Source of the DNA: Patellaria atrata CBS 101060
Lineage: Eukaryota
DNA length: 64,000 nucleotides
NCBI GenBank assembly: GCA_010093705.1
Contig: MU006095.1
Coordinates: 1,157,016-1,221,015, forward strand
Direction of reading: 5' to 3'
Both the position numbers and the translations under genes were made by a program. Positions 660 through 57,763 of this stretch are shown one piece after another (positions within the stretch are counted from its first letter, which is position 1; each line of letters begins with the position of its first letter). A model generated the notes under the pieces. It was not told where the DNA came from, ran no database searches, and saw nothing but the letters and a program-made list of their open reading frames with translations.

Positions 660-3600
660 TCAGAGCTTCCCGTAATGAAGCAACACGACCATTATGACAA
701 TGATTGCGACCAGAAGCACGCAGAACACCGAACCGACGTAAAGTGCGGCCCTCTTTTGCTGATGTCCAACGTGTCTCACATCTCCATTGGTAATGGAGGC
801 CATCACCCAATCTCCGGCTCCAGCATAGAGACCGATCAAGAAGGGTGGGAAGAGGCAACAGGCTGCAAAGAGGATCCAACTCCACTTCCTCTTCTGGGTG
901 CCGATATGAACGTTACTCTCCGTAATGATGGAGCTCGACCGACGTTTGTTATGACCTAGAGTCGGGAGACTCATGCGAACCGGCCTAGTTCCTACAGTTG
1001 GGAAGGGAAAGCTGCCTGAAAGAGGGGTGCGAGTGTCTGTGGACTCGATAAGATCGCAGGGCACAAGGTGCGACAGACGAGTATTGTTGGTTTGACCCGT
1101 ATCGTTGGTATTCGCCGACCTGAGACTGTATGTCGGCGTGCCGAAACGTCCATCAGGAGTTTGTATCGGGCGGAGATTGAGCGGTTTGAGCTCTTTCTGG
1201 TGGAAAACAGAAGCGCGACGTTGAGAGCGGGTTCGTTGCGCGTTTCGAGTCGCGGAGAGAAGTTGCTCCTGCTTGCGGCGGGCTGATTGTGCTTTCTCTA
1301 TGTTTAGGGACGATTTAGAACCAGTAGGGGGAAGCTTCGGTTGGTGCTTGGGAGATGCATCGGACTGGGCCAGTGGCGAGCTCTTGAACGGCTTGCTGCT
1401 AGAAAGGAAGAGAGAAAAGGATTTGGAGCGCGGTGTCCCTGGTGTGCTGCTGAAATCAGCGATACTACTGCCCGTTTCGCGCATGTTGGTGCCATTTGGA
1501 GTACCTGTAACATTTCCTTTTGGGCCAAGAACCGTATACTTCGCGAAAGATTCTTCGCAATTTTCCGGAAGTGGACTTGAAGAGCCTGATGGATCCTTTG
1601 CTAAGGAGTTCATGAGATGCTCATACGAACTCGCCTGTGCTCTAGGATCCCGAGTCTGTTTGCGGGCTGCTCGATGCCTTTCTTCACGCACAACTTCAAC
1701 GTCAAGATCACGCTCCATTTGACGCTCCTCGTCTAGCTCCGCATAATAAATATTATCGCTTGGACCTGAATTCAGCAGTTCCTGTTCCACCTTTGACGTT
1801 ATTTTTGAACGTTCGATACTGCTAAGACGCATAACGGCGCGTTCATGATCCGACAATCCATCAGGACTACGCGTTCGTTGCTCTTCATTGACGAAATCTG
1901 CTAGGTCGTTATATAGACCATGCTCTGCAACTAGAAATGCCCTCTCGCTCGGATCAGAGGTGAGAGTTAAGGCCGGAGGGGAGGATTTGAATGGATGGAC
2001 GTGGTCTGCCGATAGAGGGGTAGGTTGAGATTGAGATGGGCGACGAGCACCAGAAGGAGTTGTCCTCAGTGGAGTCAATACATTCCGAACAGGGAATCCT
2101 ATACCATTTTGGAAGTTGTATGCGGGACCAGGAACTGGTGGGATTCGATAATCACTGAGATCTGGAAGACTAGGTAGACTCTCCGACGTTGTAACGTTTG
2201 CAATACTGTCGTCCATGCTAGGACGAGAGACGGAGGGTCCACTTTGCTCACCAATAGTCTCCCACTCTTGCTCATCGAATTCATCGGGCATATCGGCATA
2301 AGAATCTTGTGTTTCAGAAGAATGACGCTCTTTACCATCGGAGAGGTGTGAATGGCGCCTTTCCCGATTGATGAAGAGGGCTCCAGGACCAGGAGACCGT
2401 TTTCTCCAGATCTCCGGAATTTGATCTAGATCATTGGATTCTTCTATTTCCTGTGCGGTCGCTTTGGACTTTGATTCTTGTCTGAGCTTCATATTCGCCG
2501 CATGTTCACTTGGTGAACTCGCCCTAGAAGACGAGTCGAGGAAATCATGAGTGTTTGTTCGAGGGGCGAGACGAAAATTTTGTCGTTCAACTTCACCGGC
2601 ATCGTTGATCCTATTTTGCTCTGGAGACGCAAAGATGTTCCTACTACTTCTCTTCTCTTCTCTGAATCGATTCAGGTCGTCAATAAATGCTTGCTGATAG
2701 CGTGAGACTGGCTCATTCGGATTTCCTGATCTAACCGCCGGTGGTCGAGAGTATAATCGGCTTCCAGAAGGAGATCGATAGCCAGCCTGTCCTTGGAAAT
2801 CATTTGGAAGCGCTATGGCTGATCCCCTCGCAGAATTCATTGACTCGACTCTAGATGTGTTATCTTTATCGAGTCGTAAAAGATCACGCGTGTCTCCATA
2901 AGACGAGCCGTAAGTAAGTGCGGTCGACTCATCAGGTACATGGCGAGCAAACGCCGGGTGGGGACCACCTAGATTTTCGAGAGAGACCCCAAATGCAAGT
3001 AGCTGCGACGATGCCACTGATCTACGAGTTCCCGCAGGCGAGAATATCTCACTATCGGGAGAGTTATGTGCATGTAAAGTGGTCTGGCTGGGATGCTGTT
3101 GAAGCCCGAAATCGAATTTGCTATAACCTGATGTCGATGGTAATTGAGTTGTTCTCTCAGTCGTGCTGGTTTCCGCTTCCTTTGTCAGGTCGAATAGATC
3201 CGGGTCCGTGTTTCCCTCACCCTGGTATCGATCAATGATGCTGTCCAGGGTGTTATCTTTCGTGTTACTAGGTAGACTGGGTACACGTGGGGGTTGAAAG
3301 CGTGAGAGCTCTTTCTGTATCCGATCACGCGAAGCTCTGTGGGTGTGCGTGCTTGTGGTGTCATCCTCAGCAAAGGGAAAGGGATATGAGCTCATTACTT
3401 CACTGGAGTAGTCCGTTTCTCCGACCTTGACCCCGAAAGGAACACTTCGGCGTTTGGAATTGTAGATACTTGTAGGGTATATTGAAGCTGAGTCAAAATC
3501 CCCCCCATGCGAAGAGGAAGGGTAGATCGAATCCGCGTCGTTGTATCTGTGAGGAAGGACGTTTTCAGACATCGACATCATAGGAACGCGAGGAGCGACT

Positions 3601-4988
3601 TCCGGGTTAAATTCTGGCATTGGAATAACCGGAGCTGAACTGGGCACTTGTCCTAATGGCCAATCTTGATAATCAGATGTCCTTCGTGCGGGTAATGGTA
3701 GAAGCTCATTCCCGGCTTCACCGTTTTCATCATGATTCTCATTCGTGTTCTTCTTCCGAGAGAAGATCTTGGAAACTTTTTGAGTGAAAGTTGCAGGCAA
3801 TGTGGGAGATTTTCTGTCATGAAACAAGGGTTTTGGTCTGATGTCTTCTTCTGTATCCTTGGGGGTTGGAGAAGTTGGATAGAATCGCGCAGTTGGTACA
3901 GGATGCAACGGAAGTTCCGGTGCTAAATTTGAATTGCTACCCGAATGGGGAGGAGTTTGCTTGATATCGCGATAAGCAGACTCAAAGTCCGAAAACTGTT
4001 TCCTTGTAGGTGCCGTTTTCTGGCCGCTCCCACCGTCAGTCGGTAGTAATGACGTCATATCGTCTTGCGTCAGTAATTGCGATGACGATTGTGAATGGAA
4101 ATAGTCTAACAAATCTGCATCGCGATCTGCTGGTGTTTCAATATTCGAAAACAGAAGTGATTGATGAGGGTTCACAACGTCAAAAGATGTACCGCGATAA
4201 TGTAAGATGGTCGGAGTTGCTGGTGGCGTCGCAAGAGATGAGGTTTGTGTAAGCCGTTGCGCTTTATCAGAATTGGTAGGCCACTCGTGTTGAGGTGGTT
4301 GTGGAAAGCGCGAGAGAGAAAAGGTTGAAGTGTCTGTAAACCCACTTGGAGAAAGAGGATTGAAAGTTGACGCTTCAGATCTTAGTGGAGAAGGTTGGGC
4401 AGGTTGTGTGCAGATGTTGTTACCTGGACGCGGTAGCCGTTTGATTGGCTTATGAGCTTTGGCGAATTCACGAAATCGTTTGTCAGAACGATAGAAATTC
4501 TCGGCTTCGTCGGTGGAAGGGTACTCGAACGCGCTGACGACCGATTCACGCGAAACGTTGGACTTGTACGAAGGATGTTGTTGAGAAAAGGCGGGAATAT
4601 TTGGTGATGATTGCGCGTAATGGTTGTTTCTGTATCCAAACTTGTCGACTGGTGGATTGTTCTCTTTGCCGTTCCAGGCGCGTGACGAAGGTTGATCGGT
4701 TGCAAATGAGGGTGGTGGATGAGGGTGTTGAAGTCGCGGGGAAGTGACAAAGGGTACTCGCTCAATTGAATTAAGACTAGTAGCTGCAGCCTTTCTCTTG
4801 ACCCTCTTCAAGCCCTTGACGCTGATGGCCGGTGGACTTGGAGTTGCCTGTTGTTTGCGATATTCGTGGAGAGTCAAGTTGTGGATAGGCGTCCGCGTTC
4901 TTGAAGCCGTCGAGCTAAGCGAGGCGTGAGGTGAATGCACTGGGGTAATCGGCTGCGCGACGCGTTGATACGGGTATTCGTAAGTCAT
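660..4988 (-). CDS. Large low-complexity hypothetical protein (1442 aa) with two C-terminal transmembrane segments
   Basis: Uninterrupted 4.3-kb ORF, S/P-rich, with a hydrophobic C-terminus (WSWILFAACCLFPPFLIGLY...VFCVLLVAIIVIMVVLL). Confidence 0.85.
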   Translation of the reverse strand: MTYEYPYQRVAQPITPVHSPHASLSSTASRTRTPIHNLTLHEYRKQQATPSPPAISVKGLKRVKRKAAATSLNSIERVPFVTSPRLQHPHPPPSFATDQPSSRAWNGKENNPPVDKFGYRNNHYAQSSPNIPAFSQQHPSYKSNVSRESVVSAFEYPSTDEAENFYRSDKRFREFAKAHKPIKRLPRPGNNICTQPAQPSPLRSEASTFNPLSPSGFTDTSTFSLSRFPQPPQHEWPTNSDKAQRLTQTSSLATPPATPTILHYRGTSFDVVNPHQSLLFSNIETPADRDADLLDYFHSQSSSQLLTQDDMTSLLPTDGGSGQKTAPTRKQFSDFESAYRDIKQTPPHSGSNSNLAPELPLHPVPTARFYPTSPTPKDTEEDIRPKPLFHDRKSPTLPATFTQKVSKIFSRKKNTNENHDENGEAGNELLPLPARRTSDYQDWPLGQVPSSAPVIPMPEFNPEVAPRVPMMSMSENVLPHRYNDADSIYPSSSHGGDFDSASIYPTSIYNSKRRSVPFGVKVGETDYSSEVMSSYPFPFAEDDTTSTHTHRASRDRIQKELSRFQPPRVPSLPSNTKDNTLDSIIDRYQGEGNTDPDLFDLTKEAETSTTERTTQLPSTSGYSKFDFGLQQHPSQTTLHAHNSPDSEIFSPAGTRRSVASSQLLAFGVSLENLGGPHPAFARHVPDESTALTYGSSYGDTRDLLRLDKDNTSRVESMNSARGSAIALPNDFQGQAGYRSPSGSRLYSRPPAVRSGNPNEPVSRYQQAFIDDLNRFREEKRSSRNIFASPEQNRINDAGEVERQNFRLAPRTNTHDFLDSSSRASSPSEHAANMKLRQESKSKATAQEIEESNDLDQIPEIWRKRSPGPGALFINRERRHSHLSDGKERHSSETQDSYADMPDEFDEQEWETIGEQSGPSVSRPSMDDSIANVTTSESLPSLPDLSDYRIPPVPGPAYNFQNGIGFPVRNVLTPLRTTPSGARRPSQSQPTPLSADHVHPFKSSPPALTLTSDPSERAFLVAEHGLYNDLADFVNEEQRTRSPDGLSDHERAVMRLSSIERSKITSKVEQELLNSGPSDNIYYAELDEERQMERDLDVEVVREERHRAARKQTRDPRAQASSYEHLMNSLAKDPSGSSSPLPENCEESFAKYTVLGPKGNVTGTPNGTNMRETGSSIADFSSTPGTPRSKSFSLFLSSSKPFKSSPLAQSDASPKHQPKLPPTGSKSSLNIEKAQSARRKQEQLLSATRNAQRTRSQRRASVFHQKELKPLNLRPIQTPDGRFGTPTYSLRSANTNDTGQTNNTRLSHLVPCDLIESTDTRTPLSGSFPFPTVGTRPVRMSLPTLGHNKRRSSSIITESNVHIGTQKRKWSWILFAACCLFPPFLIGLYAGAGDWVMASITNGDVRHVGHQQKRAALYVGSVFCVLLVAIIVIMVVLLHYGKL

Positions 4989-6908
4989 TGTAACTTCCTG
5001 TCCTGGCTATCCGGCTCTTATGTGAAAACAATGGACAATCCTCACGCTGTCCCGGCAACCATAGACAACTTATCCTCAACCGACACCTTTAGATCTGAAC
5101 TTTGCAGGCCAATATATCTCCTTTCTCTTCATGAACTTTTGTTTACCAATACCGTTGGTGGCCCCTCGTAGCATCCATCTTAGGTTCCCTTACGGTTCAT
5201 CCGAAGAACTTTGCAGCTATACCTCGTATACTTCTCCAGGGCGATCGAGTCAATGGTAACGCGTGCTTATACAGGAGGTCTTCATTCGATGGGTAGTCTC
5301 GTCTTTGAGCTCGCACTGGAGTTTGGGTATCCAGAATGTTTCACGCCAGCTGAAAAAAATCCCGACCTCTTCCCTATGCTTTTCAATATCCCACCTAGGA
5401 CCTTAACAGTATGGATATGAATGACACTGGAGAAACACTTCTATCTTTACGTAAAAGGAATCCTAGGAGAGCTCTCAAGTTGGTCAAAACGAAAGGGTAT
5501 GACAATTGATATGGGGTTTTGGGTCAGTTCTCGGACGACTCGACCAGCATACAGGGAACAAAGTGAGAAGTATTATCAAGAACCGAAATTACGATTAAAA
5601 GAAGAACGGAGATACATCCAGCTGTCCACAGGATGGGAAAGAGAAAAGAACAGAAAGGGTAATCACTCTTGCCGGTTTGCTGAAAGGGAAGCAGCAACAG
5701 TGTGCTATGCTCCTGCCCTGGAACTACCAGCGGGGGATAGCAAAATAAAGTATCAAGGCCTCTTCCAAGCTTCTCACCAATCCCTCCTCCATCAGCACGA
5801 ACCTGGCCTACCAGTCTACACCATCTCCACCGCTCAAGTACCATCTCCCCATCTATTCTCCCTGATTTCTCAATGTGTGGACGACGAGGTGTCGTCGGCA
5901 ACGACCCCTAGCAGATCGCCACCCTTGCCTTGGTCCCGCACGCACCAATCACAACTCCAAAGCGCACAATAGCCACCCTCGCACCCACCAATGGCGACCC
6001 TTCAGCCGCGAAACCTCGAAAGCAGACCGGAAGAGAGCAGCGAAGAACTCACCCAGTCGCTGTCCTGCAACGTGCTCCTGGAGGCTAATGCGTATCATCG
6101 AAGCTCACACATGCTCCCACCCTATCGTAATCGATAATGTCGCGCCAACCAATGGGATCTACTCGCAAGGACCTTACGATAGGGATACGAGATGACGCCG
6201 GATATGAAGGTCTGAAAAATGACCTTCTTGGGCCCGTTTCCGCGGTCTAATCCATATTTTGCCTCGCACACCAGAGATTTCAGAAAACAAACATTTTCTC
6301 GTGGCTTGGGATTACGCAGGCGCACTGAGGAGAGCTAAGGTACGGTACCTTAGAATGGGAGCTGGAAGGGAGAGAGCTATTCGTCGTGGCTCCGTAGCAG
6401 AGCAGACGGGATCCACACCTGCGTCTCCCACTCTGCCCCTCCTCGGTTGGCGCGTTCACCTCAAGCAGTAACAAACATCAACACCCGCGACCTCTCCACG
6501 CTTCTTTGACATCAACGAGCATCGCGGGCGTCTCGCCTTATGGATCAAACATATTCCCATCTGCAAGAAGACGTCAACATGCAAGATATCACCTCAGTCA
6601 CTTTCTTCAAGCACAACGTTTCTACATTATCTGCAAGACCCGTTCAGAGACCGCGCGCTTAGGATAACGGTCCAGAAAACTGCTTGTACGCCATGTAGAG
6701 TGACGACATCTGCTGAGATTCTAAGCGCGTCGATATCAGAAATTAGTTCTGCGTATCACCAGATACGGGATCTTTTCTAGAGTTGAGATTTGGCCTCGAG
6801 CGGACTATCACGTTTATCATTGCTCTCTATACCGAATAACCGCTGGAAGACGAATAATTGCCCACTATCAACTCCCTGCCTTACGTGTGTCATTTGTACA
6901 TTATGAGC

Positions 6909-7172: not shown

Positions 7173-10100
7173 TCAATAAACAAAGTAAGTCTGTGTGAGT
7201 GGCAGCGTCTCTGATGGTTCTGCTTCGCACTTCATTCCGTCCGCTTCAACATACTATACAACATTATCAGCGCCTAATTTCACGAGTTTGAGGTTTGGTC
7301 ACTACTCACGTATGTCTCCGGATCGATCTTCATCTTTGGCATCGTGTCGTTATACTTCATATCCTTCTTTCCAATCTTCCTACAATTCTTGACTGCCTCG
7401 ATCCGTTTGCGCAACCCGTATTTCTTAACTGCCCCGTTATCGAGCGATGCCTGACTCACCCAGGTGATGCTTGTTGCTGGAACCAAGGGCTTGTTTCCTT
7501 GTTAGTCAAGTTCCTCTCGCTGGATGGAGAGATGGATGGCTTACTGCAAACATTGGACGCATTATCACAGGTTCGACTGTCGGGATACTACGTTTCATTA
7601 GTTTCCCACCCCTTATTAGTCTTGTCTCCTCACTTACGAAGCATTCGGATCACCCTATTCCACTGTTAGTTTTCATACACCCAATTCACACACTTAGAAC
7701 TCACCATCTGCGCATAAGAAATCATCCCACTTTTAACCACCAAACTCGGTTTTGTCCCAAAATTACTCGGCGTCCAGAGTACCAAATCCGCCACCTTCCC
7801 GATCTCCACGCTCCCAATGAGATGCCCCATCCCCTGCGCCACCGCCGGGTTAATCGTATACTTACTCACATACCTCTTGACTCTAAAATTATCCGCGTTG
7901 GATCCCTCATCCTCGCTCAAACGCCCCCTCTGCACCTTATTCTTGTGCGCCGTATTCCACGTCCTCAGTATGACCTCTCCGCACCGTCCCATCGCCTGAC
8001 TATCGCTGCTCATCATGCTGATGGCACCTAAGTCATGTAACACGTCTTCGGCGGCGATGGTCTCGGCCCTAATCCGCGATTCGGCGAACGCCACGTCCTC
8101 TGGGATCGACCGCGAGAGGTGGTGGCACACCATCAGCATGTCGAGGTGCTCGTCGAGTGTGTTCCGCGTGTACGGCCGCGTCGGGTTGGTGCTGGACGGC
8201 AGCACATTAGCGTGCTCGACCACGGTCATGATGTCCGGTGCGTGGCCGCCGCCAGCGCCTTCGGAGTGGTACGTGTGGATTGCGCGGCCCTTGAAAGCGG
8301 CGATGGTGCGTTCAACAAAGCCGGATTCGTTCAGCGTGTCGGTATGGATGAGGCACTGGACGTCCATATCGTCGCAGACGCTGGGGCGAGTTAGACTTTT
8401 CGCGTTATGGGGATGAGAAGGGAGTGGATGGTACTGTACCTTAGACATGCGTCTATAGCCGCGGGAGTGGTGCCCCAGTCTTCGTGCAGCTTAAGACCTA
8501 CCGCTCCGGCTTCTATTTGTTCTTCTAGCGGCCTCTTCTCATTGTCATTGCCTTTGCCGGTTATGCCGAAGTTCAGGGGGAGGTTGTCGAGCGCTTGGAG
8601 CATTTGACGTATGTGGTTTGTCCCCGGTGTGCACGTCGTTGCGTTTGTTCCCGTACTATATGATCGGTAAGTTACCTCTTGTCTTCTATTGTCTGGAGAG
8701 GGCTTACCTGGGCCCTGTCCCGCCTCCAAGCATGGTAGTCACTCCGCTCGAAATTGCCTCGTAAGCCTGCTGTGGACAGATAAAATGGATATGCGAATCG
8801 AAGCCTCCCGCCGTGATGATCTTCCCCTCGCCCGCGATCACATCCGTACAACTTCCTACCACCAACTTCGGGTCAACGCCATTCATCACGTCCGGATTTC
8901 CTGCTTTGCCGATTCCGACGATGATGCTGTCCTTGATGCCGATGTCGGCTTTGTAAATACCGGTGTAGTCGACGACGAGTGCGTTGGTGATGACAGTGTC
9001 GAGGGTTTCGGAGTCAGGTCGACCACCCGCTTGTCCCATGCCTTCCCGCAGCGTTTTGCCACCGCCGAAGGAGCATTCGTCGCCGTAGGAGGTGTAGTCT
9101 TTCTCGACTTTGATCCAGAGGTCTGTGGCGCCTAGACGGATCAGGTCACCGGTGGTCGGGCCGAACATAGTACAGTAAGCTTCCCTGTCCATGGTTGCGA
9201 AGTCGATGTGCGCGGAGTCGGCATGGGGTTCTGGCACGTGCAGGAATCCTCCCTCTTGGAGTCTATCGATGATGTTTGCGGCGATCGAGACATCGTGGAT
9301 AGATCCGGTCGCTAGGCCGTTGCCTCCCTTGATGACCTGATTTCCGGCGATCTGAACGAGCGTTACGGTCTTCGCGTCGCCTGGTTCAAAGCGAACAGAT
9401 GTACCTGCAGGGATGTCTAGACGGAAGCCATGCGCGCGTACGCGGTCGAATTCGAGCTGTGGGTTCGTCTCGGTGAAGTGGTAGTGCGAACCAACCTGTA
9501 TAGGGCGATCCCCTTTACTAACGACCCTCAAGCAGATGCGCTTCCGTCCTTCGTTCAGCTGGATCCTACCCTCTTTCACCGCCACGACTATCGCGCCCGG
9601 CTGCTTCTCTGCTTCGTACATCGACGCGTCCGGCAACGGGAACTTGTCTTGCGAGGGGACCGGGAGGAAGGAGCCGTAAAGTGCTTTTTCGAGATCGCCG
9701 TCGTCGGACGCGATCGGGTGGTGCACGGTTACGAGATAGGTGCCGCTGGGGAAGGTCCCTTCGATCATGAGTTCGGAGAGCGTGGTCGGCACGGAGGGGA
9801 GGACGTGCCGTCGGCCGAGCATTTCCGTCCCGATTACCATGAGGTCGGCCACCGTGTGGTTGCCGTCGCGGACGAGCTATAGGGGTGAGTAAGATGGATA
9901 TGTATCTACTGCGTTGGGGCTCTAGGGGCGCGGGGAGCGGTAAGCAGAAGAAGTACCTCTTGTAGGTTATTCGCGATCAATGCCTGGATATCTGTATCAG
10001 TATGAAGGTATCAAGAGAGGGGGAGGGATAAGGGAAAGGGGGGAATACTGTAGCTTCCGCATGGTTCAACTTCACGCCCCGAGCCAGCCTCCGCTGGGCC

Positions 10101-15711: not shown

Positions 15712-18526
15712 ATGGCTTCCTCGCGTATTTTCGTGAAAGGTCTACCGCCGACGTTTTCTCAAGATGAATTCAACAAGCATTTCTCCAGGCAATATCCAAT
15801 TACGGATGCTAAATTCTTCCCACATCGGAGGATTGGCTATGTGGGCTACAAAAACCACGAGGACGCCGCAAAAGCGGTAAAATACTTCAACAAATCATAC
15901 ATTCGTATGTCTAGAATATCTGTTGAAATTGCCAGACCAGTATGTGATATACTAGTTCCTGCAAACTGTTCGAAGACTGCATGTTTACTCAGCAAATCTG
16001 TAGATCGATAATACCGTGCCTATCCCCAAGGGGGAATCTTCTCATAACGTCAATTCAAAGCAATCGCCGCACCAAAATGAAGACCAGCCCCTTGATAATC
16101 CCCTGAAACGTAAAAGGACGATCCGAGAAGGACCTGGTACAGATCCAAAGTTGACGGAATATCTAGAGGTTATGCAACCGCACTCTAAGAGAAGTATCTG
16201 GGAGAACCACAACAGTAATGCGCCTGTGACTTCAGAACCAGCACATGATGTAGAAGAGCAAACCATCGTCGAAGACGGTGATAGCGATTCTGAGTACGAG
16301 GTCGTACCAAAGAAGTCGAAAAACGCTTCAACTTCCATCTCAAATACAACTTCCGTAGGACAGGCGATCAGTTCCACTAACCAAGATCAGGAGAATGACC
16401 AAGCGAATCCGCCAGCTATACCTGACGAGGAAGTACCCACAGTCGTTCCGAGAGATACCTCACAGTCTGATGCAGACTGGTTGCGCTCGAAAACCAGTCG
16501 TCTACTAGAGTTAGATGATGGTTATAGCGGCGCTGAAGGAACCCGAGTGTCTATGTCACAGGATAAGGATACCGGTCCAGCTGAAGAGATGCGCAATATC
16601 GCGGTTGCTCTTCCCAATCAAGATACTCTAGAAGAAACAGGCCCAGCTACTGCCATCTCGACTGATCAAGTGAAAACTGAATCTGACACGAACAAGGATA
16701 CAGGAAGGTTATTTCTGCGCAATCTACCCTATACTGTTACGGAAGATGACCTTCGAGAGTATTTTAATGCGTTCGGTTCTTTAGATGAGGTGAGCATCTT
16801 CTCGTTTGTGCTCATTTGAAAGTCTTTTATGATGAATACCTGATAGGGACATCTGATGCAATGTAATTGATGTAACTCAGGAAGAGTATTTTAGTAGATG
16901 CTTCTCAATTTCTGAATTCGCCTTATTTGCCACGTTACAGAATATCAATGTCTTGGAGACTTTGCTAACTCTCTTAGGTGCACATTCCAATTGACTCTCG
17001 AACCGGCGCCGGAAAAGGCTTCGCATATGTACAGTTTTTGGAACCGTCTGAAGCCATTCGATCGAAGGAAACATTAGATGGCACGATTTTTCAGGGTCGT
17101 TTGTTGCATATCATCCCAGCGAATGTAAAACGTGAAAGCCGCCTTGATGAGTATGCAATATCTCAGTTACCCCTTAAGAAACAGAAGCAGATACAAAAGA
17201 GAGCTGAAGCAGCATCTTCTACTTTCAACTGGAATGCTTTGTATATGAATGTAAGTATTAACCTGCTCTTTCGAGAGACTAATCAACTGATTCTTCTAGA
17301 CCGATGCTGTCATGGCGTCCGTTGCCGATCGCTTAGGGGTGAATAAAGGCGAGTTGCTCGACCCAACCTCTTCGGATGCTGCAGTCAAACAAGCTCACGC
17401 AGAGACGCACGTTATTCAAGAGACGAAATCATATTTCGTGCAAAACGGTGTTGATCTAGACTCATTCAAGAGAAAAGCAAGAGGTGATACGGCCATTCTT
17501 GTGAAGAACTTTCCTTATGAGACCAAGGTGGAAGAGCTTAGGAAGCTATTCGAGGAGCATGGCAAAGTACTAAGAGTACTCATGCCCCCAAGCGGTACCA
17601 TCGCCATCGTGGAGTATGCACAAGCACCAGAAGCACGTGCAGCTTTCAAAGCTCTAGCATATAGAAAGATCAAAGACTCCGTTCTTTTCTTAGAGAAAGC
17701 TCCAAAAGATGTGTTCGATGGAAAACTAGGTAATATCAAGAATGGTCCTCGTGCGTCTTCGCCAACGAGTGTAGCGAAGCTCTCAACAACCGACTTGCTT
17801 GGTAAAGAGAGTACCATCGATACTTTCGATACGGCCACGTTGTTTGTTCGAAATCTTAACTTCACTACGACATCTGAGCGCCTTACTGAAACGTTTAAAC
17901 CTCTGGACGGGTTCATGTCAGCCGTGGTGAAAACAAAGCCAGATCCTAAGAATCTAGGCAAAACACTTAGTATGGGCTTTGGCTTTCTCGAGTTCCGCAC
18001 CAAAAGTCAAGCTCAAGCGGCGCAGGTTATAATGGATGGCTACGATCTGGAGGGTCATAAACTTGTTATCAAAGCGTCCCATAAAGGATTAGATGCCGCA
18101 CAGGAACAAATTCGAAAGGATCAGGCTAAGAAAGCCGCTGCGGTGAAAACAAAAATAATTATCAAAAACTTACCTTTCCAAGCAAGTAAAAAGGATGTGC
18201 GAGCTCTATTTGGGGCTTATGGACAGCTCCGCTCTGTCCGTGTCCCGAAGAAATTCGATAGCTCTACCCGTGGCTTTGCGTTTGCCGAGTTTGCTACGCC
18301 GCGAGAAGCTCAAAATGCAATAGATGCGCTCGGAAATACTCATTTTTATGGCAGGAAACTTGTCCTCGACTTTGCCGAAGAAGGGGCGGCTGACGCTGAG
18401 GAAGAGCTTGAGAAGATGCAGAAAAAGGTCGGCTCCCAACTCAACAGAGTTGCTTTGCAACAACTCACTGGTGTTGGCCGAAAGAAGTTTAATGTCTCAG
18501 GTAATGAAGACGAGCAAGATGTTTAA
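15712..18526 (+). CDS. MRD1: Multiple-RRM pre-rRNA processing protein Mrd1
   Basis: MASSRIFVKGLP start, five RRMs, FNWNALYMN and SSDAAVKQAHAETHVIQETK motifs; three introns. Confidence 0.95.
16825..16920 (+). ncRNA. snR64: Intronic box C/D snoRNA, snR64/SNORD74-like
   Basis: C box ATGATGA at 16829; guide GATAGGGACA followed by D' CTGA at 16853, complementary to the conserved LSU rRNA tract TGTCCCTATC; TAGTAGAT accessory pairing; D box CTGA at 16912; lies in MRD1 intron 2. Confidence 0.85.
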
Positions 18527-25880: not shown

Positions 25881-26503
25881 TCATCTCCTCTTCTTCACCT
25901 CGGCACCCCCTTCTTCATCCCTCTTTCTCTCTTCCTCTCTAGCCTTCGTTCTCACCTCCTCATCATACCTCTTCAACCGCTCCTCATCCATGACTCTTCT
26001 TCCCTGCTCATCCAACCCCCACCACTCTCTATGGAACTTCTCCTGTTCCACCCTCTTCCGCTCTTTCTCCTCTCGCTCCGCCCGCCGCTGCTCTCGCGTC
26101 GCAAACCACTCTTCCCGCGCGATATCCTGATTCTCCCGGGTCGCGTGCAATATCATGCATTTGTTCATAGAGAGCCGTTGGGCGCGGCAGGCCCATGTCG
26201 CGCTTATCGTGCGGTTGAGGGCGCAGGAAGCGAAATCTAGGACGGGTCAGTTTGAGGATTACTTGAAATATTTGGGCAGGATTTGGGGAGTCGTTGGGAC
26301 TCTTCGGAGAAGATGCTGTTTATCGAGGATTATAAAGGAGTGGTATCCGTACCTCTGATTTCATCCGCGCATATCGTACGCACGCGCTTGTAGTATAGTT
26401 CCCGTACTTGTTGCTCCTGGCCTGCGGAGAGCGGGATGGGGTTTCGTGAGGGGAGGGAGGTGTGGGCAGCAGCTGTGGGGGAGCTAGAGCTCGTGGACGC
26501 CAT
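25881..26503 (-). CDS. Cmc1-like twin-CX9C mitochondrial protein
   Basis: Spliced ICADEIR|DFASC...WACRAQRLSMNKCM (CX9C pairs) followed by a coiled coil. Confidence 0.8.
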
Positions 26504-26918
26504 GCGGGGTGCGAAGCTCATCGAGTTTGATCTCAATGACTCGTAGGTGGTCAATGAGGGCTCGATGTGTAGGTTGTGTATGACGGTTGGAGGTTGTTTG
26601 TGGACCTGGACCTAGAGCTTTGATTAAGCACGGGAAGCGCTGCCGCGGAGTTTTTGCGCGCGGACCGAGGTGGGACGACAAGTGAACGTCTGATGGGACG
26701 GCAGTTGTGAGTATACCTTTATTCGAACTTGTATTTGTATTTCTCTTCTTTTTCCTATTTTTTCATATTTGGGGACCTGCTCAAGTTTAACTCAATTACT
26801 ATCAGGAACAATATTCTACCGGTTGCTTTTGTCTAGTTCTGAGCTCTTCTTCTCATCATCATTTCTTCACTTATTTCAAGATTTGAGATTCCAGCTTGTG
26901 ATACACCTTTGTACCAAT

Positions 26919-27761
26919 ATGAAGATTCAGGACCGTACTTTCATAGTGACAGGAGGGTAGGCACGATGATATATACGACTACACAACCGACAATTAACAG
27001 ATATCAGCGCCTCGGGTCTCGGATTAGCAACAGCCAAAGAGCTCCACAAAAATGGCGGCTACATCTCAATCATGGACATGAATTCCGAGGCTGGCGAAAC
27101 CCTAGTCAAAGAACTCGGCACCGAAAAAGCCAAATTCTTCGAAGTAGACGTCACCAAAACCGAGAGTATCCAAACCGCGGTAAACGAGACAGCGCAATGG
27201 ACCAAGAGCACGGGAATAGAGTTAGGCGGCGTCATCACTGCTGCAGGTGTTGGTTTCCCCGGCAAGATCATCGATAGGCATAATGAACCTCTCGCGATGG
27301 AGTCCATAGATTTTGTACTCAATATCAATCTAAGGGGAACTCTCGATACTATCCGCCTCGCTCTTCCGCATATGACACAAGTCACACCTACCCATCCCGA
27401 TGGCGAGCGTGGAATCATCGTTATGGTAGCATCGTCCGCTGCTTTCGACGGCCAGCCGGGCCAGGTGGCTTATGCAGCATCAAAAGGGGCGGTGGCATCA
27501 ATGACGCTACCCCTGACGAGGGATATCGCTCAGTACGGCATTCGAGCTGTTACGATTGCGCCAAGTTTGTTCGAGAGCAATATGACGAAGTTATTGTCGA
27601 ATAAGGTGAGGAAGAGTTTAGAGCGCGTGATGGAATTTCCGGTCCGAGCAGGCAAGGCGGAAGAGTTCGCGGCGCTGGTGAGGCATTGTATTGAGAATTC
27701 TATGCTGAATGGGACGGTGTTGAGATTAGATGGAGGGATGAGAATGCCTAGTAAGTTATAA
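26919..27761 (+). CDS. Short-chain dehydrogenase, HSD17B10-like 3-hydroxyacyl-CoA dehydrogenase, with PTS1
   Basis: TGG|ASGLG Rossmann motif, YAASK catalytic motif, ends SKL. Confidence 0.92.
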
Positions 27762-28069
27762 GATGCAAATAGAATGAAATTATGGAGTGACGTTGAACTC
27801 ATTCATTTCCTTCCCTATTCGAATCTTTTTGTCTGCAAAATATAAGGTAAGAAATAAGTAAACCCATGGTCTAACAAGGCTTTCGCTGTAATATTCAATA
27901 ATTGATTGTGAACCTGTTTGGTATGAAGCAAGTAGACGTATTTTAAAATCTCATAGTAAACCCTTTCATACCTTATCTAGGTGCAAATTTTAACTCTTCC
28001 TTAAGATATACGTGATGATATTAGAAGCAGAAAGAAGCAGAGAAAACAATTAGCATAAAAAAATTAAAA

Positions 28070-28250
28070 AAAAATTGCAAAACAATGAGCCCCGTAGGAC
28101 TTCTTGAACCCCCCGGACGAGATTTTTGCTACCGCTACTCCATTGACCTGAGGTTTACCGATAATCCCGCCCGGAGGGAGTTTCGAACCGCCGACGTTTG
28201 CGTTTCGGGGGGGATCGTAGTCAGACTACCTGACCGCTCTACCATTGTTA
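28070..28250 (-). ncRNA. Unidentified ~170-nt Pol III-type structured RNA
   Basis: A box TGGTAGAGCGG, B box GGTTCGAAAC, closing stem AACAATG/CATTGTT, cUACGg tetraloop hairpin, downstream T-run. Confidence 0.65.
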
Positions 28251-28937
28251 ATTATTATTTGGTCACCTTCTTGGTAAATATAGGGAATAGGCGTGGGGGA
28301 CCGGAAAGGGGGTATAACGTGCGCTGTTGTTACTGTTTCGCGGTGGCCGGGATTCATTAGGGTGAGAGGAATTGCAACTTGCACAGTGACTCCTGGTAAA
28401 TTTTGAGCGGCATTTCGGCTACGAGGGAGGGTTTTTCCCGTTTCCTAAGTTGAGGATGCATGTTTCTTGATTACTGACGTCACTCAGGGGGTATTTTCTC
28501 CTATCTACTCTTCATCTATGGACGATTACAGCTATATCCTAATCTCACTCTTTATCCATCACCGATAAGTCCACTTAAGAAATGAATCCCGCATAACTGA
28601 CGGCCTTTAGAATTCCCGTTCAAAAGGAGCCTCAGCAGTGGGGATGATGATACAACTCTAAAAGAGGAAGACGGTGAATACGAATAGGCATCGTTCCCAC
28701 TTCTACAAACTATTGTCTCGTAAAGAGTAATGAAGCTTTGGAGAAGTAGAGCTGGTCGATCCTACAGTAACAAGTAATGACAGTTCAGACGCGAGACTTT
28801 TGAAATATTATCATTTTCTACTAAATAAAAGTATAAAAGTCGACTACGTCCCCATCTTAACTGAGTAAATCAGAAAATAAGAACCGATTTCATCAGGTCT
28901 ATGAATTACAAAGAAGAGTCGTTCATGATAGTCAAGC

Positions 28938-30950
28938 TCAAACTAGGACAAATGCTTTCAATTCCCTATCTACCATGTTATTCAGATCCTCAACCTCCTT
29001 TTGCAATAAGTCATCTATTTCCCTAACCCAGATTTCCCCGTATGCTCTTTTCAGTGACTCCATTGCTTCCCCATTCATGAAGCCATGAACGAAGCATCTT
29101 CCTATAAATTGATATCGCACTCGATTCGGTTCAACGCTCGACGAGTCGCACCTTCGGAGGACAAAGGGGGTCGAACTTCCCAGAGCAATGCAGATGATGT
29201 CACTTTCCTGGGCCATACTCGGACCTTTCGCGAAATATCCTTCAGGTGTGACAGAGAACCTCCAGCCTGGCAAGCGACCATTCAACACCGACCGACGTCT
29301 TCAATATTTCTTCTGTCAGTGCCTCAGACCTCGATGTTTCCGAATAAGCTCCTTTTGAGTGAATTAGCCAATCTTCGGTAGACCCACCAGTGGCCAGTAA
29401 GGTTTTCATGAAAGCAACTAGTATAGGTTCACTGGTTGGCTCGTATGTTTCTTTTCTGGGTAGAAGAGAGCCCCATAACTCAGCAGCGTCCTCTGGATCA
29501 ATTTCGAATCTGAAATCCTTTGGGTTAAGTCGTAGGTTCGATCCGGACTCTCCCACAGAATCTAACAATATTCCCTTAATTGTCAGTTCACCCGGGAGTT
29601 CCTCTGGGCTGCAGTTTGATGCAACTGAACTTAATGCGGAGCAAGTCGTAACAGATTGGCCATCTGCATTTCAGCAACTGCGTAACTTTTCCCATGGCCT
29701 ATATGGATTAGCAAGATCTATCGCAGCAATAGTCAGCATTGAGACGCGCAGAGGTGATTTGCGATTAGCTGGAACATTGTCTATAATGTCAACGCTGTCA
29801 AGGTATTCGTTAAAGTCGGGAACCCAGCTTGGAATACCATTAGTATGTTGGCGTTTTTATATTGTGGATCTGCTTTAGATAATCGAGACAGCGGATCTTT
29901 GGAGCGCGATGTGCGATAACAGATTTCAAGATGCTCCCGTAGAGGGTTTGAAGCGAAAAGTTATAGTCCACAACAATGGATGGGCATACCTGCGAGATAT
30001 TTAACAGCGAATAAATCTTGTCCTAAGGTAGTGCAGCTCGGCGACGTTGGAATTGCCATAGTAATTGATTCATCCGATATGGATCTTCTTTCTTCCGCTG
30101 CTTAAGAATTTCTGCAATGATCCTTACCCTGATTCATATTGGAAATTTCGGTAATGATCCCCGCTGGTATATCTTCGCCGGTCATTCCACCTGCTTCAGA
30201 CTGCTAGAAATCCCATATTTTGGAGAAAAGGTTTGGGAGAGAGCGTCTTTGTGAGCTATAAGGACTCTCAAAAGGGATATTTATGCGGTCATGAAAAAAC
30301 CATACTGTCAGAAAGCGAAGCATAAGGTATCTCCACCCCCTGGTATAAAACACAAGCTTGCTATCCAGAAAATACCTCCTGCACTACCCAAACCCTCGTC
30401 CACCAAGTCTGTGCAAAGACACCTTCCCAGTATGCCTTTGGGGGTTGCACCGTCACGTTGCCGAGTGGAAACATCCATAAGCCAAACCCATACCCATTCA
30501 GCACCAGAATAAACCCGGTGCATAATCTTCACCTGCTCGTTCCTTTCCTCTATATCTTCTTGATTGATACATATAGCATCTGCCCATATCCTGAACCTAT
30601 CGGTTCGTTTATGGGCGCGAAGATAGCGCATGGCATCTGCCAGATTTTTAGTCACCTCAAGCTTGTTTCTACCACTGTACAGGTCATCTTCTCTAGGACG
30701 GTTACCGTTAGTGACTACCATGTCTTTGTTCGAAGGATCTCCCCAAATGTAAGACAAAGCATGGGATGTTGGAGCATCCTCAAGAGAAACCGTCTCTAGG
30801 TTATAGAGTAGCGGATCCGAATCGTATTCACTTGCCAGAAGTGTGATTAAACGTGTTTGCCTAGAAGGATCTGGTAGGGCGGAGTAAGCGTACTTGGGAA
30901 GGGTGTTAGGCAGGCCATCTTCAGTAGGTTCAAAAATCCGCTCGCCATCT
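28938..30950 (-). pseudogene. HET-6-like heterokaryon-incompatibility gene, disrupted
   Basis: HET motifs ALSYIWGD, IWADAICINQEDIEERNEQV, PSWVPDF and FIGRCFVHGFMNGE; in-frame stop before DKIYSLL, frameshifts, and no ATG in the HET frame. Confidence 0.8.
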
Positions 30951-31819
30951 CTTAGGTGACCAGCTCGGACCGAGAAAGTGCAGGAATCACTATTATACAG
31001 TCATTAGCGTACTCGATCGACCACGTACCAGTCTCAGATTCAAGTCAGCTACTAAACAAGAGATATCAGCTTCTGGATAAAATGAAACAGCTGTATTTGA
31101 GCTGAACTAAACCTGTAGGGTGCGCTAACATAATAGGATAGAACTATTGGTTACTGTCGAAGGAGTAGTCTTGAGCAGTTGACAGTAATTCTATCTCACC
31201 AATTCAACAGTAGTATGAAGAAACATCAATTATCAGGTTATACCAGAGGACGGTTTATCCGCATCTCAGGAAAAATACTACGGTGATGGTGCTAGCGAAA
31301 GGAACTGAGAGACGGGCTATGCTAGAATTTAGCAACAAGCCTAGAGGAATAAAGATACGAAAAGAATATGTTAGTCATATCCTGACTGGATGTCCTACCC
31401 GAAACATCTCCTATGCCACGAGCTGTGCTAGTATTAAGTATCTAACATATGGTTGTCCTATTAAGAACTGTTATTTCTACTTTACCCGTGAGTCCAAGAG
31501 GCAGCAAGTTCAAGAAATCCAAAAAAAAGAATATAGTAGAACTGAGTATCTACGAAGTGGAAAGATGATGTTGATATTGACTAAGATCTGATATTGCGCC
31601 AGATAGCGCTAACTCAAAAGCTCTAAATTGACCCCTTTGACCCTCCGCAACGAATTCTACTTCATTAAGATCGGAATATCTGTTGATAATTCTAGATATA
31701 GAACTGCGTGATGCAAGCTTTAGGACTCGTGAGAGTTTAACGAAACATAATTTTAGAATACGGATTTAAAGGAAGCTACACCTCTTAAGGCAGGGCGAAC
31801 TCATAAGGTAATATATCAC

Positions 31820-51038: not shown

Positions 51039-53780
51039 TCATGTCTGCGGGGCTCTACCTAGACCAGTTGCCATCCTAAGTATCCAGTGTAGCCACCCCT
51101 CCTTTTCTTTCGTTTCATCCTCATAGTCTTTCAACTTCCGCTCCACAAATTCAATTCTCTTTTCAAACTCCTCAACGCTGTCTTCAACGTCCTCGACCTT
51201 TCCTCTCAAGGCAGATACCTCATATTCCAGCTTCGCAGTCACATTTTCGACATCCGTAATCGACTCTTGTAGGTGTGTTTTTTCCTCTTCGAGGATCTCT
51301 TGGACATCAGCAGAGAGGGTACGGAACGTCTCGAGACGGGGCTGATACACTTGCTCCAGAGTTTCATTGTCTTGATCTGCAAGGTTTTCCAAATCTTTTA
51401 CTCTCGAAAGTTGGGAATCTACCCAGGTTCTTAGTGTATCTTGAATAAGTACTATCCGGTCGCGCGTTTGCTTTGCCAGCTCTGCAGCAACTATCTCGTT
51501 CACTAGTGCTTTCTTTGGATCTGTAGGTAGGCTAGATTCACTTTCTGAAGCTGGAACGATATTCTTCCAAGTGAGGATACTCTCCTCAGCGATGCTAAAA
51601 GATAGATGACGAGGCCACCACTGGTCGTTTCGAGCAGTCGTCCGTAGACTTCTATACCTTGAAAAACTCTTTGTTCGACGGAGAAGTAGTCCAACATGTT
51701 TTTCGGGACCGTCATGTTCCTGAAATATCTCCTCAAGATCGACTCCTTGGTAAACCGACCCAGCTATGGAAGGGTCGGCCGTTGGGATATTGTATTCTGG
51801 TTCATCGTCTGGAGGAACAACGGCGCCTAATTCCGGTTGCTCGTCATTAGTAGACGGTGCAACATGATCAGGGAAGAATGCAATCTTCGATTCATGAGGG
51901 GTCTCCGAGTATACCTTAGTAAAGGTTGGGGAGGATGTGACATCGTCCCGTTCGCGGGTTGGCGGTCGCTTCACAGCATTCTTTGTGTCTTTCGTAGTGA
52001 CTAGTCTATCTTTGAATTCTCCAGTAGTTGGGGATATTCCCATATCACCCGAATTCTCGGTCTCAGTCCGCCTGAGACCATTTTCAGCATCACTATGTCC
52101 AGGATATCCGTTCTCATCTCTCGAGGATTTGTTTGTCCCATGCTCTCGGCGACCCACAGCGTCTTTGATACGTCCAAGTCCACTTCGAGCATCGGTCATT
52201 TTACCAGTCGCTCGTTTGAGCAATGTTTTCTTTGAAGATTGATCTTTATCGGTACTGTCAATCAAGGGCTGTTCTTCCGGAGAGTATCTCTCGTAGGTCA
52301 CAGATTCCTTCCGGAGTTTCTGTATGTCTACATTCGTTGAATCTTTCCTTTGGGTGCCCCATGCGTATCCACCTTGATCGTCCTTCTGAAAGACAAGACC
52401 CTCACTTCCGGGTAGTCTATTGAACATGTCCCCGGAGTTCGTCTTGCGTGGTTTTGCGTGCCAAAGCCATTTTGCTTTCTCGCCTTGAACGAGCTGAGCA
52501 AATCTCTCGATATCAGTAGTCTCTATCTCAGCAATTCCTACTTTGTCTCGGGCACCAACCATGTCCATAACCATTTCCCCACCCTTACCACTTAATTCCG
52601 CCACAGTAGACTTCACAGCATGTGGCATTTTCCAGCCTTCGCTACTAGCAGCTTTTGCAGTCGCTTTATGGATACGCTCTAGGGTAAGGCGATCTAATCT
52701 GCGCGTCTTTTTGATGCGCTGTGACTTCTGAAAATATGCTATCCCTCTTTTGGTACTCTCAATGTCGAAGACATCTTTTGCAACAGGTGCAGAATATGCA
52801 TGTAACCGATTTCTCGCTCCCATGAGCATACCTAGAAGTGCAGCCACAGTCGTAGGACCTAAGATACCGTCATGTGGTTCTATCATGAACCATTCAGTTC
52901 CGAATTCTACCCACCAGTCATTGATAGCTTTCTCCGTAACATCACATAGTAACCCATCAGCGTATTCGGGTTCAAGTTTGTCGAATAGCATCAATGCAGC
53001 TTGGCAAAGTTTTACCAGTTCGATAACAGCACTGTATAAAGGAATCTTATCACTGATTTTGTACAATTGGTGGAATTTGGCTTGCGTAGCGCTATTCGGT
53101 GTGGTCAGGGTAAGGGCCACACGCCCAGAGCAGCCGAGCCTTTTTAAGTTCTCGTTGACGAAAAAGTCTTCCCTGTGTTTTCTGACATCTCCTTCAGGTA
53201 CGGGGATAACAGTTAAGGATGAAGGGAATGCGCTAAGATTTGTAACCATCAATATGCCCAAATGAGTTTCCCTCGGACGAGCATGGTATTGATTCAGCGC
53301 TTTGAAATACACAGAGAGTCTGGGTGACCATTCTCGTTCATCCGTTGACACACTGAATACATTTACAGCCACAGAGTGTGTTGGATCCCCTGAGTAGGTG
53401 GTTATAACAAACGTAGGATGTGTTCGGGAGCAAGCCCACTGCTCCACGATATAGCATTCGAAGCCCTCGAGCTTTTCGCGGCGAGCAAGGACTTTGACGG
53501 AGGGATCTTCTTCGAGGTACCTGTAACACTTGTTAGAGCATGATTTGACGAGTAACATTAGAACTTACTTGAACGCTACCGGATCAGTGAGAACAAACCG
53601 TTGGTGAGACTGCTTAGGGCCACCGAGAGAGGATCTTTTCGGCGACGTGGACTTCCTAGTCGAGTTGACTGAAGCGGATGATCGGCCGAGATTGGTATTA
53701 TAGAGCTGTGATGTCTTAATTTGTGGAAGTCGTCTGCGCAGATCGGCATCTGTAGGAACAAAGCGAGAGGGTGTAGCCAT
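51039..53780 (-). CDS. Sin3-binding protein Stb2/Stb6-like
   Basis: FVLTDPVAFK|YLEED...YIVEQWACSR, YADGLLCDVTEKAI; C-terminal coiled coil. Confidence 0.9.
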
Positions 53781-55312: not shown

Positions 55313-57763
55313 TTAGCCCAATGCTATTGCCCGCATGCTCCCCTTCTGCAGTCCACGCTTCGGAACATTGAATGTATCTACATGCTGCTCCTTCTCTTCA
55401 TTCTCGAGTTCGGCGGGGCTACTCTTCGTCGTCCTCACACTCTTATCATCGTCCGGGTTCAGGGACGCATGGATGAGTTCCTTCAGCTTCTCACGGGCCA
55501 TTTCGCGGGACTGCGCAAGGACGTGTTCGCGACGGACGAGCTAGCGTTATAGTCAGCATCAGCACTCACAAGCGCATAACTGACCCGACATATTATTCAG
55601 GAATAAGAAATTATTAACTCACCAGCTCCTTACACTGCAAATCCATCTCGACCTGTCTATTCATCGAATCCCCGAGCATCCTCAACTTCACATTCGCCTT
55701 CAGATACCTCGAGCACGGCACGACCTCCTTAATATACTTGTCCAACTTCTTCTTCACATCCGCCAATGTCTCGTACGATAGCTTCGATGCAAAATCCGGA
55801 AGGTTCACCGTCTCCTTCAGCACCAACCCCTTCGATCGCGACAGGTTAGAGATCCAAACATCAACAATCTTAATGTGGGCGATTTGCTCCGTGACGCCGT
55901 CGCAGGTACGGTGGAAGACGGTGTAGAGGAGGAATATCTCGTCTACGATGAGTTCTTTGGCTTCGATTATCACGTGGTCGCCAACGTCGTAGGGTTGCTT
56001 GGAGAAGACGAAGGAGCAGGATTGAACGAATTCCGTGACTGTGTCCGCGAGGGCGAAGGAGAGACCCGTTATCGTGGTCCAGATAGGGGTAAGGTAGTTT
56101 CCGAGGTTATTTGTGAAGAAAGCGGCTATGTGTTGTTAGCTACTATGTTATACTCTTCTAACCTACAACCTTTCTGTTCAATGATGATGTGGCTATAAAA
56201 TACTACAGGGATGAAGTGGTAATCATAGACAATCCCCAACCGAAATGGGCAGATGTATGATCCGACAAAGTAGGTAATCACAAACTTACCATATATGATG
56301 GCCATGATCACAAGCATAAGACCAGATACAACAATATTGACACTCTTAGCCGTCTTCTTGATCCCATCCAAGCTTTTGTTAATATCTCTTAGAGACATAC
56401 GAATCTCCAAATCGACATCAACCCACTCTTGCAGGCTCGCTTCCTGGTTTCCATCTTTATCCAAAATCTCAATGATTTCCTTCGCCATAAATGGCCGGTT
56501 GCCCAGATACTCAAATGTGTTCATCTTATCTAAAGGTGGCGTATCAAGCATCTTTTGGATAGATTCTTTCGTGAAAATCGTCTGTGATAACTCAATAGTC
56601 TCGAGTTTTAACTTTGCTTGGAACCAAGCCGTGAAGCTTGCCTCAAGTTGCTTTCTGAGAGCGCGTAAGAATGTTACACCATCAGTGTCAAAATCCTCGT
56701 CCTTGCCTTTTCCGTTCCAGTACCGGTCGGCGAGGTTGTCGAAGTCATGAGGACTTGGTGGCTTGGAACGAAGGAGAATATTTGCTTTCCTGAGTTTCTG
56801 GTACTTCTCACCGAAGTAATCCGTGAGTTTCGCCCAAGTCGATCTGCTCGTATTTGCCCGATCCTCCACGAGGAGGAGATGAGCTTGAAAATGCCGCAAT
56901 ACTTTTTTCAACCTGGACCTCTTCAGTCTCGTCTGCGACCTTGTGATGATTAGTTGCATGAGGAGGTCTTTGGCAAGGAAGACAGCACTCGCAGGCAGTG
57001 TAGCCAGTAGGACTGTTCTAAAAATCTCAATCCAATGCACACCGCAGCTGTCGCTCTCATTGTAACACATAATGTCGACCGTACAATATGCGATGATCGC
57101 GAGGAAGAAGGCGTTTATGGAGGTTTGGCTCTCTAGCAAGAAGCTTTTGTACGAGTTCAAGTGGGCTTTTTCGCACACTTGGTACCATATCTTTCCAAGG
57201 GCCCAGGCAATGAAGTACATGAGCCACGCAGCCGTCCACAATACTTCAAGCCAGATCAGAAACCCGGAGACTCTAATACCATCCATATTTCTATCGGAGT
57301 AGGCGGTTGCCGTAACTACCAGCGGGGGAACAATCAAAATTGCTCCCATGAGCCACCATGTGGATGCTCGAGTTCGTTTGACCACCTGACTAAACCTTTG
57401 GGGTTCTTTTTGCTTCACCTCTGCGACAGTGGCCTGAACAGGTTGTTCCTCTTCTGCTGCTGCATTTTCTGGAGTCGATTTAGTGGTCCGCTTAGACTGT
57501 GCCTCTAGATGATTGGAGATTTCAAATACTCCGGGTTCCTCGTCCAGTTGAAATCTTGTAGAGCCAGCTTTCCCAGTATCAACACTTTTGCGTACAATTA
57601 TACCGGTGTCGGTTTGAATCTCTGAAGACTCGGTGCTTCCGCGTACGTCGATGCTCTTGTTCGTCTTACTCGTGAATTCAACGTTGTTCCGGACATTGGT
57701 ACGGCCATCATATCCCGGTGGTTGCAAACGAATACTTCTACGAGCACTCTTCCCGATGTCCAT
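55313..57763 (-). CDS. MscS-like mechanosensitive channel with an EF-hand (Msy-type), divergent
   Basis: Multiple TM helices, LDKDGNQEASLQEW EF-hand, TVFHR...ISNLSRS motif. Confidence 0.85.

Follow-up and report, generated by a model that had tools for sequence, protein, structure and literature searches.

The stretch at 28067–28250 on the minus strand of the window (the whole stretch of DNA that was analysed, 64 kb in length) is one copy of a multi-copy dispersed repeat. In the initial annotation it figured as an orphan Pol III ncRNA whose structure included a cloverleaf-like junction, a description which is given up in view of the tens of copies, of two proposed helices that are weak or absent and of a TATA-like motif that lies in the flank. 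With a probability of about 0.6, we read the repeat as a tRNA-type, Pol III-transcribed SINE-like retroposon, of which the window contains a slightly 5′-truncated copy. Its SINE-like features are a length of ~185 bp without coding capacity, dispersal, an A-box-like motif, a conserved B box and an end formed by a T run. Pol III transcription, RNA-mediated copying and tRNA ancestry are properties which we infer for the repeat from its sequence.

Copies, limits and presumed insertion site of the repeat

The evidence for further copies derives from the contigs of two public runs of the same organism, X1 and X2, which were aligned to positions 26500–29500 at identities of at least 80%. Both runs represent one sample and are not independent, and their contigs are probably of DNA. 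The window's own locus is reproduced with 0 differences by two contigs, 26500–28207 and 28178–29500, which break inside the candidate, as assemblies do at repeats. The repeat stretch itself attracts 41 contigs of X1 and 36 of X2 at identities of at least 80%, distributed over the identity classes 99+, 95–99, 90–95 and <90% as 3, 7, 20 and 11 (X1) and as 3, 6, 16 and 11 (X2). Among the contigs listed (12 of the 77), all pieces from other loci fall within 28072–28250, and the flanks differ from copy to copy, as indicated by the loose ends of the aligned contigs. The summed depth in the bin 28116–28216 amounts to 11383 in X1 and 13214 in X2, compared to 313–327 and 412–481 in the flanks, and rises at position 28161 to 15006 and 21213, respectively. 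The ratio of the repeat to the single-copy flanks is thus ~30–47; because the summed depth of contigs cannot be equated with a copy number and two contigs may represent parts of one copy, the size of the family is given as some tens of copies, roughly 20–45. The other contigs among those listed have a depth of 289–332 (X1), which corresponds to the single-copy level, and lengths of up to 24 kb; they accordingly represent distinct loci within a single genome. An origin of the extra contigs from another organism in the sample is disfavoured, as their depth equals that of the window's own single-copy contigs.

The repeat is accordingly short (<1 kb), interspersed and non-tandem, as SINEs are: a unit of ~183 bp recurs in 41 and 36 contigs between unlike flanks, and no second or tandem copy was found in the 64-kb window. 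Given its recurrence at many sites across the same genome, the stretch is no orphan, and the orphan status assigned to it by the initial annotation is not borne out. For the same reason a chance assembly of motifs in AT-rich intergenic DNA, or a single-copy orphan ncRNA, is scarcely credible, despite the facts that the single motifs stand at chance frequency and that no known family matches. The search for related sequences elsewhere gave one match of a 20-mer of the core to the metagenome contigs (contig L001, 601–620) and nothing more; it was dismissed as chance, as this segment reads as a bacterial coding stretch with no further likeness to the repeat and no tRNA. A 25-mer of the core gave 0 matches in prokaryote genome contigs. 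A full-text literature search for words of the core likewise gave 0 papers, and these words did not match the text supplement of PMC5063351, a paper whose AfuSINE sequences are contained in its figures and other supplements.

In the window the unit spans ~183 bp on the minus strand, from 28250/28249 (5′) to 28067 (3′), as defined by the contig alignments. For the family a unit of ~180–190 bp is obtained, and the flanks are unique beyond ~185 bp. Loose ends at 28244, 28247 and 28250 on the 5′ side and at 28067 on the 3′ side enter unlike sequences and, as this holds for both sides, the unit is discrete. The limits rest on few copies, because at identities of at least 80% the 3′ part is covered by only ~3 other contigs and the 5′ part by ~7–10. 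At 28067–28084 (minus strand) the window copy terminates with TTTTGCAATTTTTTTT, composed of T4 and then T8, and one other copy is common with it through TTTTGCAA and T8 to position 28067, from where the two diverge. The T4/T8 end presumably serves both as Pol III terminator and as tail of the element. On the opposite side, three other copies have TTC(G)AACTAAC in common 5′ of the aligned part, where the window reads AATAATTAAC; the family unit therefore starts a few nucleotides upstream of 28250. The ~7–10 nt of 5′ sequence common to these three copies and missing from the window copy correspond to a truncation that is typical of retroposed copies.

A candidate target-site duplication surrounds the window copy. 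The 5-bp sequence TAATT is present at 28250–28254 on its 5′ side and at 28062–28066 on its 3′ side (minus strand), in each case abutting the homology limit. 5-bp repeats that abut points 183 bp apart occur at 67 of 63300 window positions when an exact placement is demanded and at 610 of 63300 with a slack of 2 nt; in equally AT-rich flanks the corresponding values are 3 and 35 of 1844. The chance of such a pair is thus 0.1–2% overall (0.11% exact; 1.0–1.9% with 2 nt slack), and the TAATT pair, which comprises just 5 bp in DNA with 20% G+C, provides fair but not strong support for a target-site duplication. As the window copy sits between these repeats, is short of its 5′ nucleotides and carries changes private to it, a dead insertion is more probable than a gene that is expressed.

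Motifs, predicted fold and conservation within the family

The motifs named in the initial annotation were all re-located on the minus strand where they had been placed. The A-box-like motif TGGTAGAGCGG at 28244–28234 agrees with TRGCNNAGTGG at 7 of its 9 specified positions and is located 55 nt from the B box GGTTCGAAAC at 28189–28180. The inverted ends AACAATG and CATTGTT occupy 28249–28243 and 28087–28081, and further complementary pairs are GTCAG/CTGAC (28234–28230 and 28224–28220), CGGGATT/AATCTCG (28169–28163 and 28124–28118) and AGTCC(TACG)GGGCT (28101–28088). T runs of four, nine and seven nucleotides are found at 28082–28079, 28074–28066 and 28063–28057. The TATA-like motif TATATTTA at 28282–28275 is positioned in the unique 5′ flank and outside the repeat, as the homology between the copies ends at 28244–28250, and is a fortuitous part of this flank. 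Taken singly, the A- and B-box motifs stand at chance frequency: GGTTCGANNC is seen twice in the window versus 2.09 expected, and the A-box consensus with at most 2 mismatches 227 times versus 240.9 expected, which leaves the A-box-like motif weak on its own. A second B-box word, GGTTCGATCC at 29535–29544 on the plus strand, was rejected as a chance occurrence, since it lies in ORF-like sequence with neither an A box nor a T run nearby. In other copies of the repeat the B box reads GGTTCGAATCT or GGTTCGAG (loose ends at 28176 and 28179), the former being nearer to the consensus than GGTTCGAAAC of the window; differences inside the box at 28185, 28187 and 28189 are carried by only 1 contig each.

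The chance frequency of the individual boxes has to be considered together with the 7-bp inverted ends of the window copy, the short direct repeat around it and the presence of the core in many more contigs than the ends, as if larger elements shared a module. These observations would be compatible with a MITE, or else with a piece of some larger repeat, be it an LTR or a different transposable element, in which the box look is coincidental. However, the homology to another copy passes the 3′ inverted end by 14 nt and proceeds through the T run to 28067, and the 5′ inverted end differs in three other copies, which read TAACTCAATGG or TAACCTCG at this position. The inverted ends are for these two reasons no feature of the family; the 7-bp terminal stem is seen in the window copy alone, and terminal inverted repeats at the unit ends, which would characterize a MITE family as a whole, are not found. 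Moreover, the B box is near the consensus in several copies and the flanks become unique within ~185 bp. The unit has no TG start or CA end on either strand; as neither strand begins with TG and ends with CA, a solo LTR was ruled out. Altogether, a MITE or a fragment of a larger element appears to be an unlikely source of the family, and the SINE-like retroposon is retained as the preferred reading.

A 175-nt RNA read from the repeat has a minimum free energy of −63.8 kcal/mol (z = −2.26), and 4 of 200 shuffled sequences fold equally well. Two small hairpins of the initial annotation are firmly predicted on the minus strand, GUCAG-GUAGU-CUGAC at 28220–28234 with pair probabilities of 0.96–0.97 and AGUCC(UACG)GGGCU at 28088–28101 with pair probabilities of 0.73–0.99. 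Minimum free energy and pair probabilities also predict a long imperfect hairpin (CCCUCCGGGCGGGAUU... / ...AAUCUCGUCCGGGGGG) at 28109–28178 (minus strand), which includes the inner CGGGAUU/AAUCUCG helix; in the ensemble, five pairs of this helix have a probability of 1.0, followed by 0.79 and 0.34. The GUCAG, inner and tetraloop hairpins of the earlier proposal thus persist, whereas its 7-bp terminal stem AACAAUG/CAUUGUU reaches an ensemble probability of only 0.19–0.26 and its C-run/G-run helix one of 0.0, the latter because the G run pairs within the long hairpin 28178–28109.

The copies have diverged by 5–20%, but not evenly along the unit. The most conserved and most repeated part is a core at 28123–28198 (minus strand), which comprises the B box and the 5′ strand and apical part of the long hairpin and coincides with the depth peak; among the differences listed, none reaches 10% at 28123–28160 or 28166–28184. 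Nearly all of the summed depth falls on this core. The most variable stretch is 28196–28216 with indels of 1–9 nt; these, together with the spread of identities, look like the decay of old insertions. At position 28165, U is found in 19 of ~20 contigs and A in the window, and the strand opposite to it reads AAACCCGUCC in 2–3 contigs compared to AAUCUCGUCC in the window. As the helix is kept in both versions (28165 A>U plus AAACCCGUCC), the difference is two-sided and pairing-preserving. Conversely, 28114 G>U and 28161 U>A, each occurring alone, disrupt predicted pairs. The 3′ hairpin at 28088–28101 is covered by ~3 other contigs, and in one copy its pairing is lost by single-base deletions at 28099 and 28089. 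The evidence on an RNA structure of the repeat is therefore mixed.

This pattern of conservation bears on a reading of the repeat as a family of functional ncRNA genes that are transcribed by Pol III, present in many copies and specific to the lineage, in which the window copy would be expressed and the core and the hairpin would be functional. It would account for the conservation of the core far above the 5′ and 3′ parts, for the T-run terminator in both copies that are seen through the 3′ end, for the long-hairpin strands that both differ with their pairing kept (28165 A>U; 2–3 contigs) and for the folding z-score of −2.26. Divergences of 5–20% with indels of 1–9 nt, the loss of predicted pairs through single changes (28114 G>U, 28161 U>A and single-base deletions at 28099 and 28089), 5′ ends which vary between the copies, a 5′-short window copy flanked by a direct repeat and the lack of any matching Rfam family argue against it and render a family of functional genes rather improbable. 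For the SINE-like retroposon it nonetheless has to be stated that the core is far better kept than the 5′ and 3′ parts, and that plain neutral decay predicts neither this nor the helix-keeping difference. As a long shot, a 55–75-nt core that is nearly invariant over some tens of copies might be kept by selection at the RNA level, as hinted at by helix-keeping subfamily changes, and would then be a fungal counterpart of the conserved central domains in animal SINE superfamilies or mark a lineage-specific Pol III ncRNA family born from a SINE. If this were true, the SINE-born ncRNA could act as a small-RNA precursor or as a TFIIIC-bound boundary element.

Within the core, CAATGGAGTAGCGGT (28130–28146, minus strand) resembles CAATGGTAGAGCGGT in the head of the repeat (28231–28247, minus strand), with 12 of 15 positions agreeing by eye. 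The core word at 28142–28132 also fits the A-box consensus with 2 mismatches and is followed downstream by GGTTCAAGAAG. The likeness of CAATGGAGTAGCGGT and CAATGGTAGAGCGGT may go back to an internal duplication or to an origin as a dimer, although by a rough estimate it is within chance.

Relation to tRNA genes and known RNA families, and the surrounding locus

The claim of the initial annotation that the stretch is neither a tRNA nor a member of a known RNA family has held up. ARAGORN detected 0 tRNA genes in the whole 64-kb window, and the Rfam tRNA model RF00005 gave no row at E values up to 10, neither on 551 nt of the locus nor on the 101-nt head. No row at E values up to 10 was likewise obtained at the locus with the generic Rfam models of 5S and SRP RNA. 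The best row at the locus is RUF6-5 (E 0.18, 20.4 bits), besides IhtA (E 7) and Methylosinus-1 (E 5.8, with the 101-nt head alone); all of them are far under the gathering scores and chance-level only. RUF6 RNAs of Plasmodium (RF01581) have a gathering score of 70 compared to the 20.4 bits found here, and the alignment is based on the T run and on generic G+C-rich pairing; the likeness was set aside as a chance match. The ARAGORN and Rfam nulls also rule out an intron-containing tRNA. The hairpin GAAGUCC...GGGGCU displays what we take to be a resemblance to the P4 strands of RNase P/MRP RNA, but an RNase P/MRP-like reading was dropped, as the hairpin has no Rfam row and the unit is multi-copy. 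In sum, neither ARAGORN nor RF00005 recognizes in the stretch a tRNA cloverleaf, with its acceptor stem, its anticodon loop of 7 nt and its T arm, and the covariance models of Rfam do not assign it to 5S, U6, SRP or RNase P/MRP RNA, to snoRNAs or to any other Pol III or structured RNA on record there.

Certain features of tRNA genes are nevertheless traceable. The B box GGTTCGAA, which is the T-loop sequence of tRNA genes and pseudogenes, is common to the repeat, and CAATGGTAGAGCG of the window presumably resembles many eukaryotic tRNAs in their D loop and 3′ D-stem strand. It is followed by a 5-bp hairpin at the place of the anticodon arm. In contrast to tRNA genes, the repeat is devoid of an acceptor stem, its hairpin loop has 5 instead of 7 nt, 27 nt separate the hairpin from the position of the T arm, the T stem lacks a complementary 3′ strand and ~95 nt of extra body are attached thereafter. 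By tRNA numbering, we take as the homologous A box the TAAC(TC)AATGG-type sequence which is carried by three fuller copies and precedes the A box chosen in the initial annotation by 8 nt. The alternative classification offered there, a tRNA-derived SINE-like unit, is the one favoured by the copy number, the B box, the T-run end, the 5-bp repeat and the 5′-short copy; its derivation from a tRNA is putative, a likeness to tRNA having been found neither by ARAGORN nor by Rfam. Besides this missing likeness, the chance frequency of the single boxes, a copy number below 100, the shortness of the direct repeat and the absence of a LINE or reverse transcriptase from the window count against a SINE.

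The copy is housed in the intergenic gap between a gene for a short-chain dehydrogenase (ending at 27761, plus strand) and one for a HET-domain protein (30308–31000, minus strand), and the DNA around it is ordinary and gene-dense. In this DNA of a filamentous ascomycete, the ORFs of the window encode a urease, an HMG-box protein, RRM proteins, Utp11, a carbon-nitrogen hydrolase, the short-chain dehydrogenase and the HET-domain protein, and no reverse transcriptase, transposase or LINE was found among the 33 window ORFs scanned. Three long open frames, 660–5006 (minus strand, 1448 aa), 51039–53564 (841 aa) and 56126–57853 (575 aa), match no Pfam family at E values up to 1e-5. At gathering score, Rfam 15 has no match at the locus and only two matches elsewhere in the window. 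The first is a full-length match to the Afu_335 C/D snoRNA family of Aspergillus fumigatus at 16825–16917 (plus strand, 82.7 bits); it is flanked by two RRM-encoding ORFs (16004–16819 and 17300–18526) and probably stems, for this reason, from an intron of a gene for an RRM protein. The second, to the Helicobacter 5′ ureB sRNA (5_ureB_sRNA; 8758–9051, plus strand, 74.2 bits), is antisense to the fungal urease ORF 8704–9876 (minus strand; Urease alpha, beta and gamma domains) and most likely reflects the conserved urease coding sequence rather than an sRNA.

Proposed propagation and comparison with known SINEs

For the repeat as a SINE-like retroposon we propose the following scenario, which is deduced from the sequence features described above. 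In source copies, TFIIIC would bind to the A and B boxes inside the 5′ head, and Pol III would begin a few nucleotides upstream and stop in the T8 run of the element itself. The resulting RNA, predicted to consist of the head, the long hairpin body and the small 3′ hairpin, might be copied into new sites by a reverse transcriptase supplied in trans by a LINE, and each new insertion would leave a short target-site duplication.

By this assignment a false lead is removed, as the supposed structured Pol III orphan proves to be a repeat copy, and a compact Pol III-type repeat family joins the sparse record of fungal SINEs. A family with tens of copies, an end defined by its own T run and a well-kept core would lend itself to strain typing as a marker and to repeat annotation. 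It would also help to ask which fungal LINE mobilises oligo(U)-ended RNAs.

The repeat family is not a new kind of system. As far as the available text of PMC5063351 describes them, tRNA-related SINEs of 140–493 bp with degenerate boxes and non-cloverleaf heads are on record in the fungus A. fumigatus. Compared by description only, AfuSINE2, MgSINE and Foxy share with the repeat that they are short, non-coding and dispersed (PMC5063351, in the same portion of text). Further parallels to the fungal SINEs portrayed there are a 5′ part with degenerate A and B boxes and no cloverleaf fold, a body that shows no relation to tRNA, flanks with short direct repeats and a location in gene-rich regions. 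With some tens of copies the repeat ranges between the low-copy AfuSINEs (1 to ~5) and MgSINE and Foxy (~100–160), other fungal SINEs having 11 to ~160 copies according to the same text. It differs from them by its compact size of ~185 bp and by a T8 end in place of the A-rich or trinucleotide tail reported in that text.

SINEBase, in the accessible part of its description (PMC3531059), asks for 100 copies, with an exception for repeat-poor genomes, and for a head at least 60% identical to tRNA, 5S or 7SL RNA over at least 60 nt. The ~35–39 other contigs and the depth ratios of ~30–47 place the repeat below 100 copies, and the exception clause, as worded in that part, may apply to a compact fungal genome. 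The T-run end is compatible with SINE practice, since poly(T) is among the accepted SINE tails in the available sections of PMC8825457. The poly(T) SINEs of plants presented in these sections have the same layout as the repeat, namely box A, ~25–55 nt, box B, body, T run and, immediately behind this tail, the target-site duplication. They belong to another kingdom, no homology is claimed, and their target-site duplications of 8–16 nt contrast with the 5 nt of the window copy; the order of the elements is common to both.
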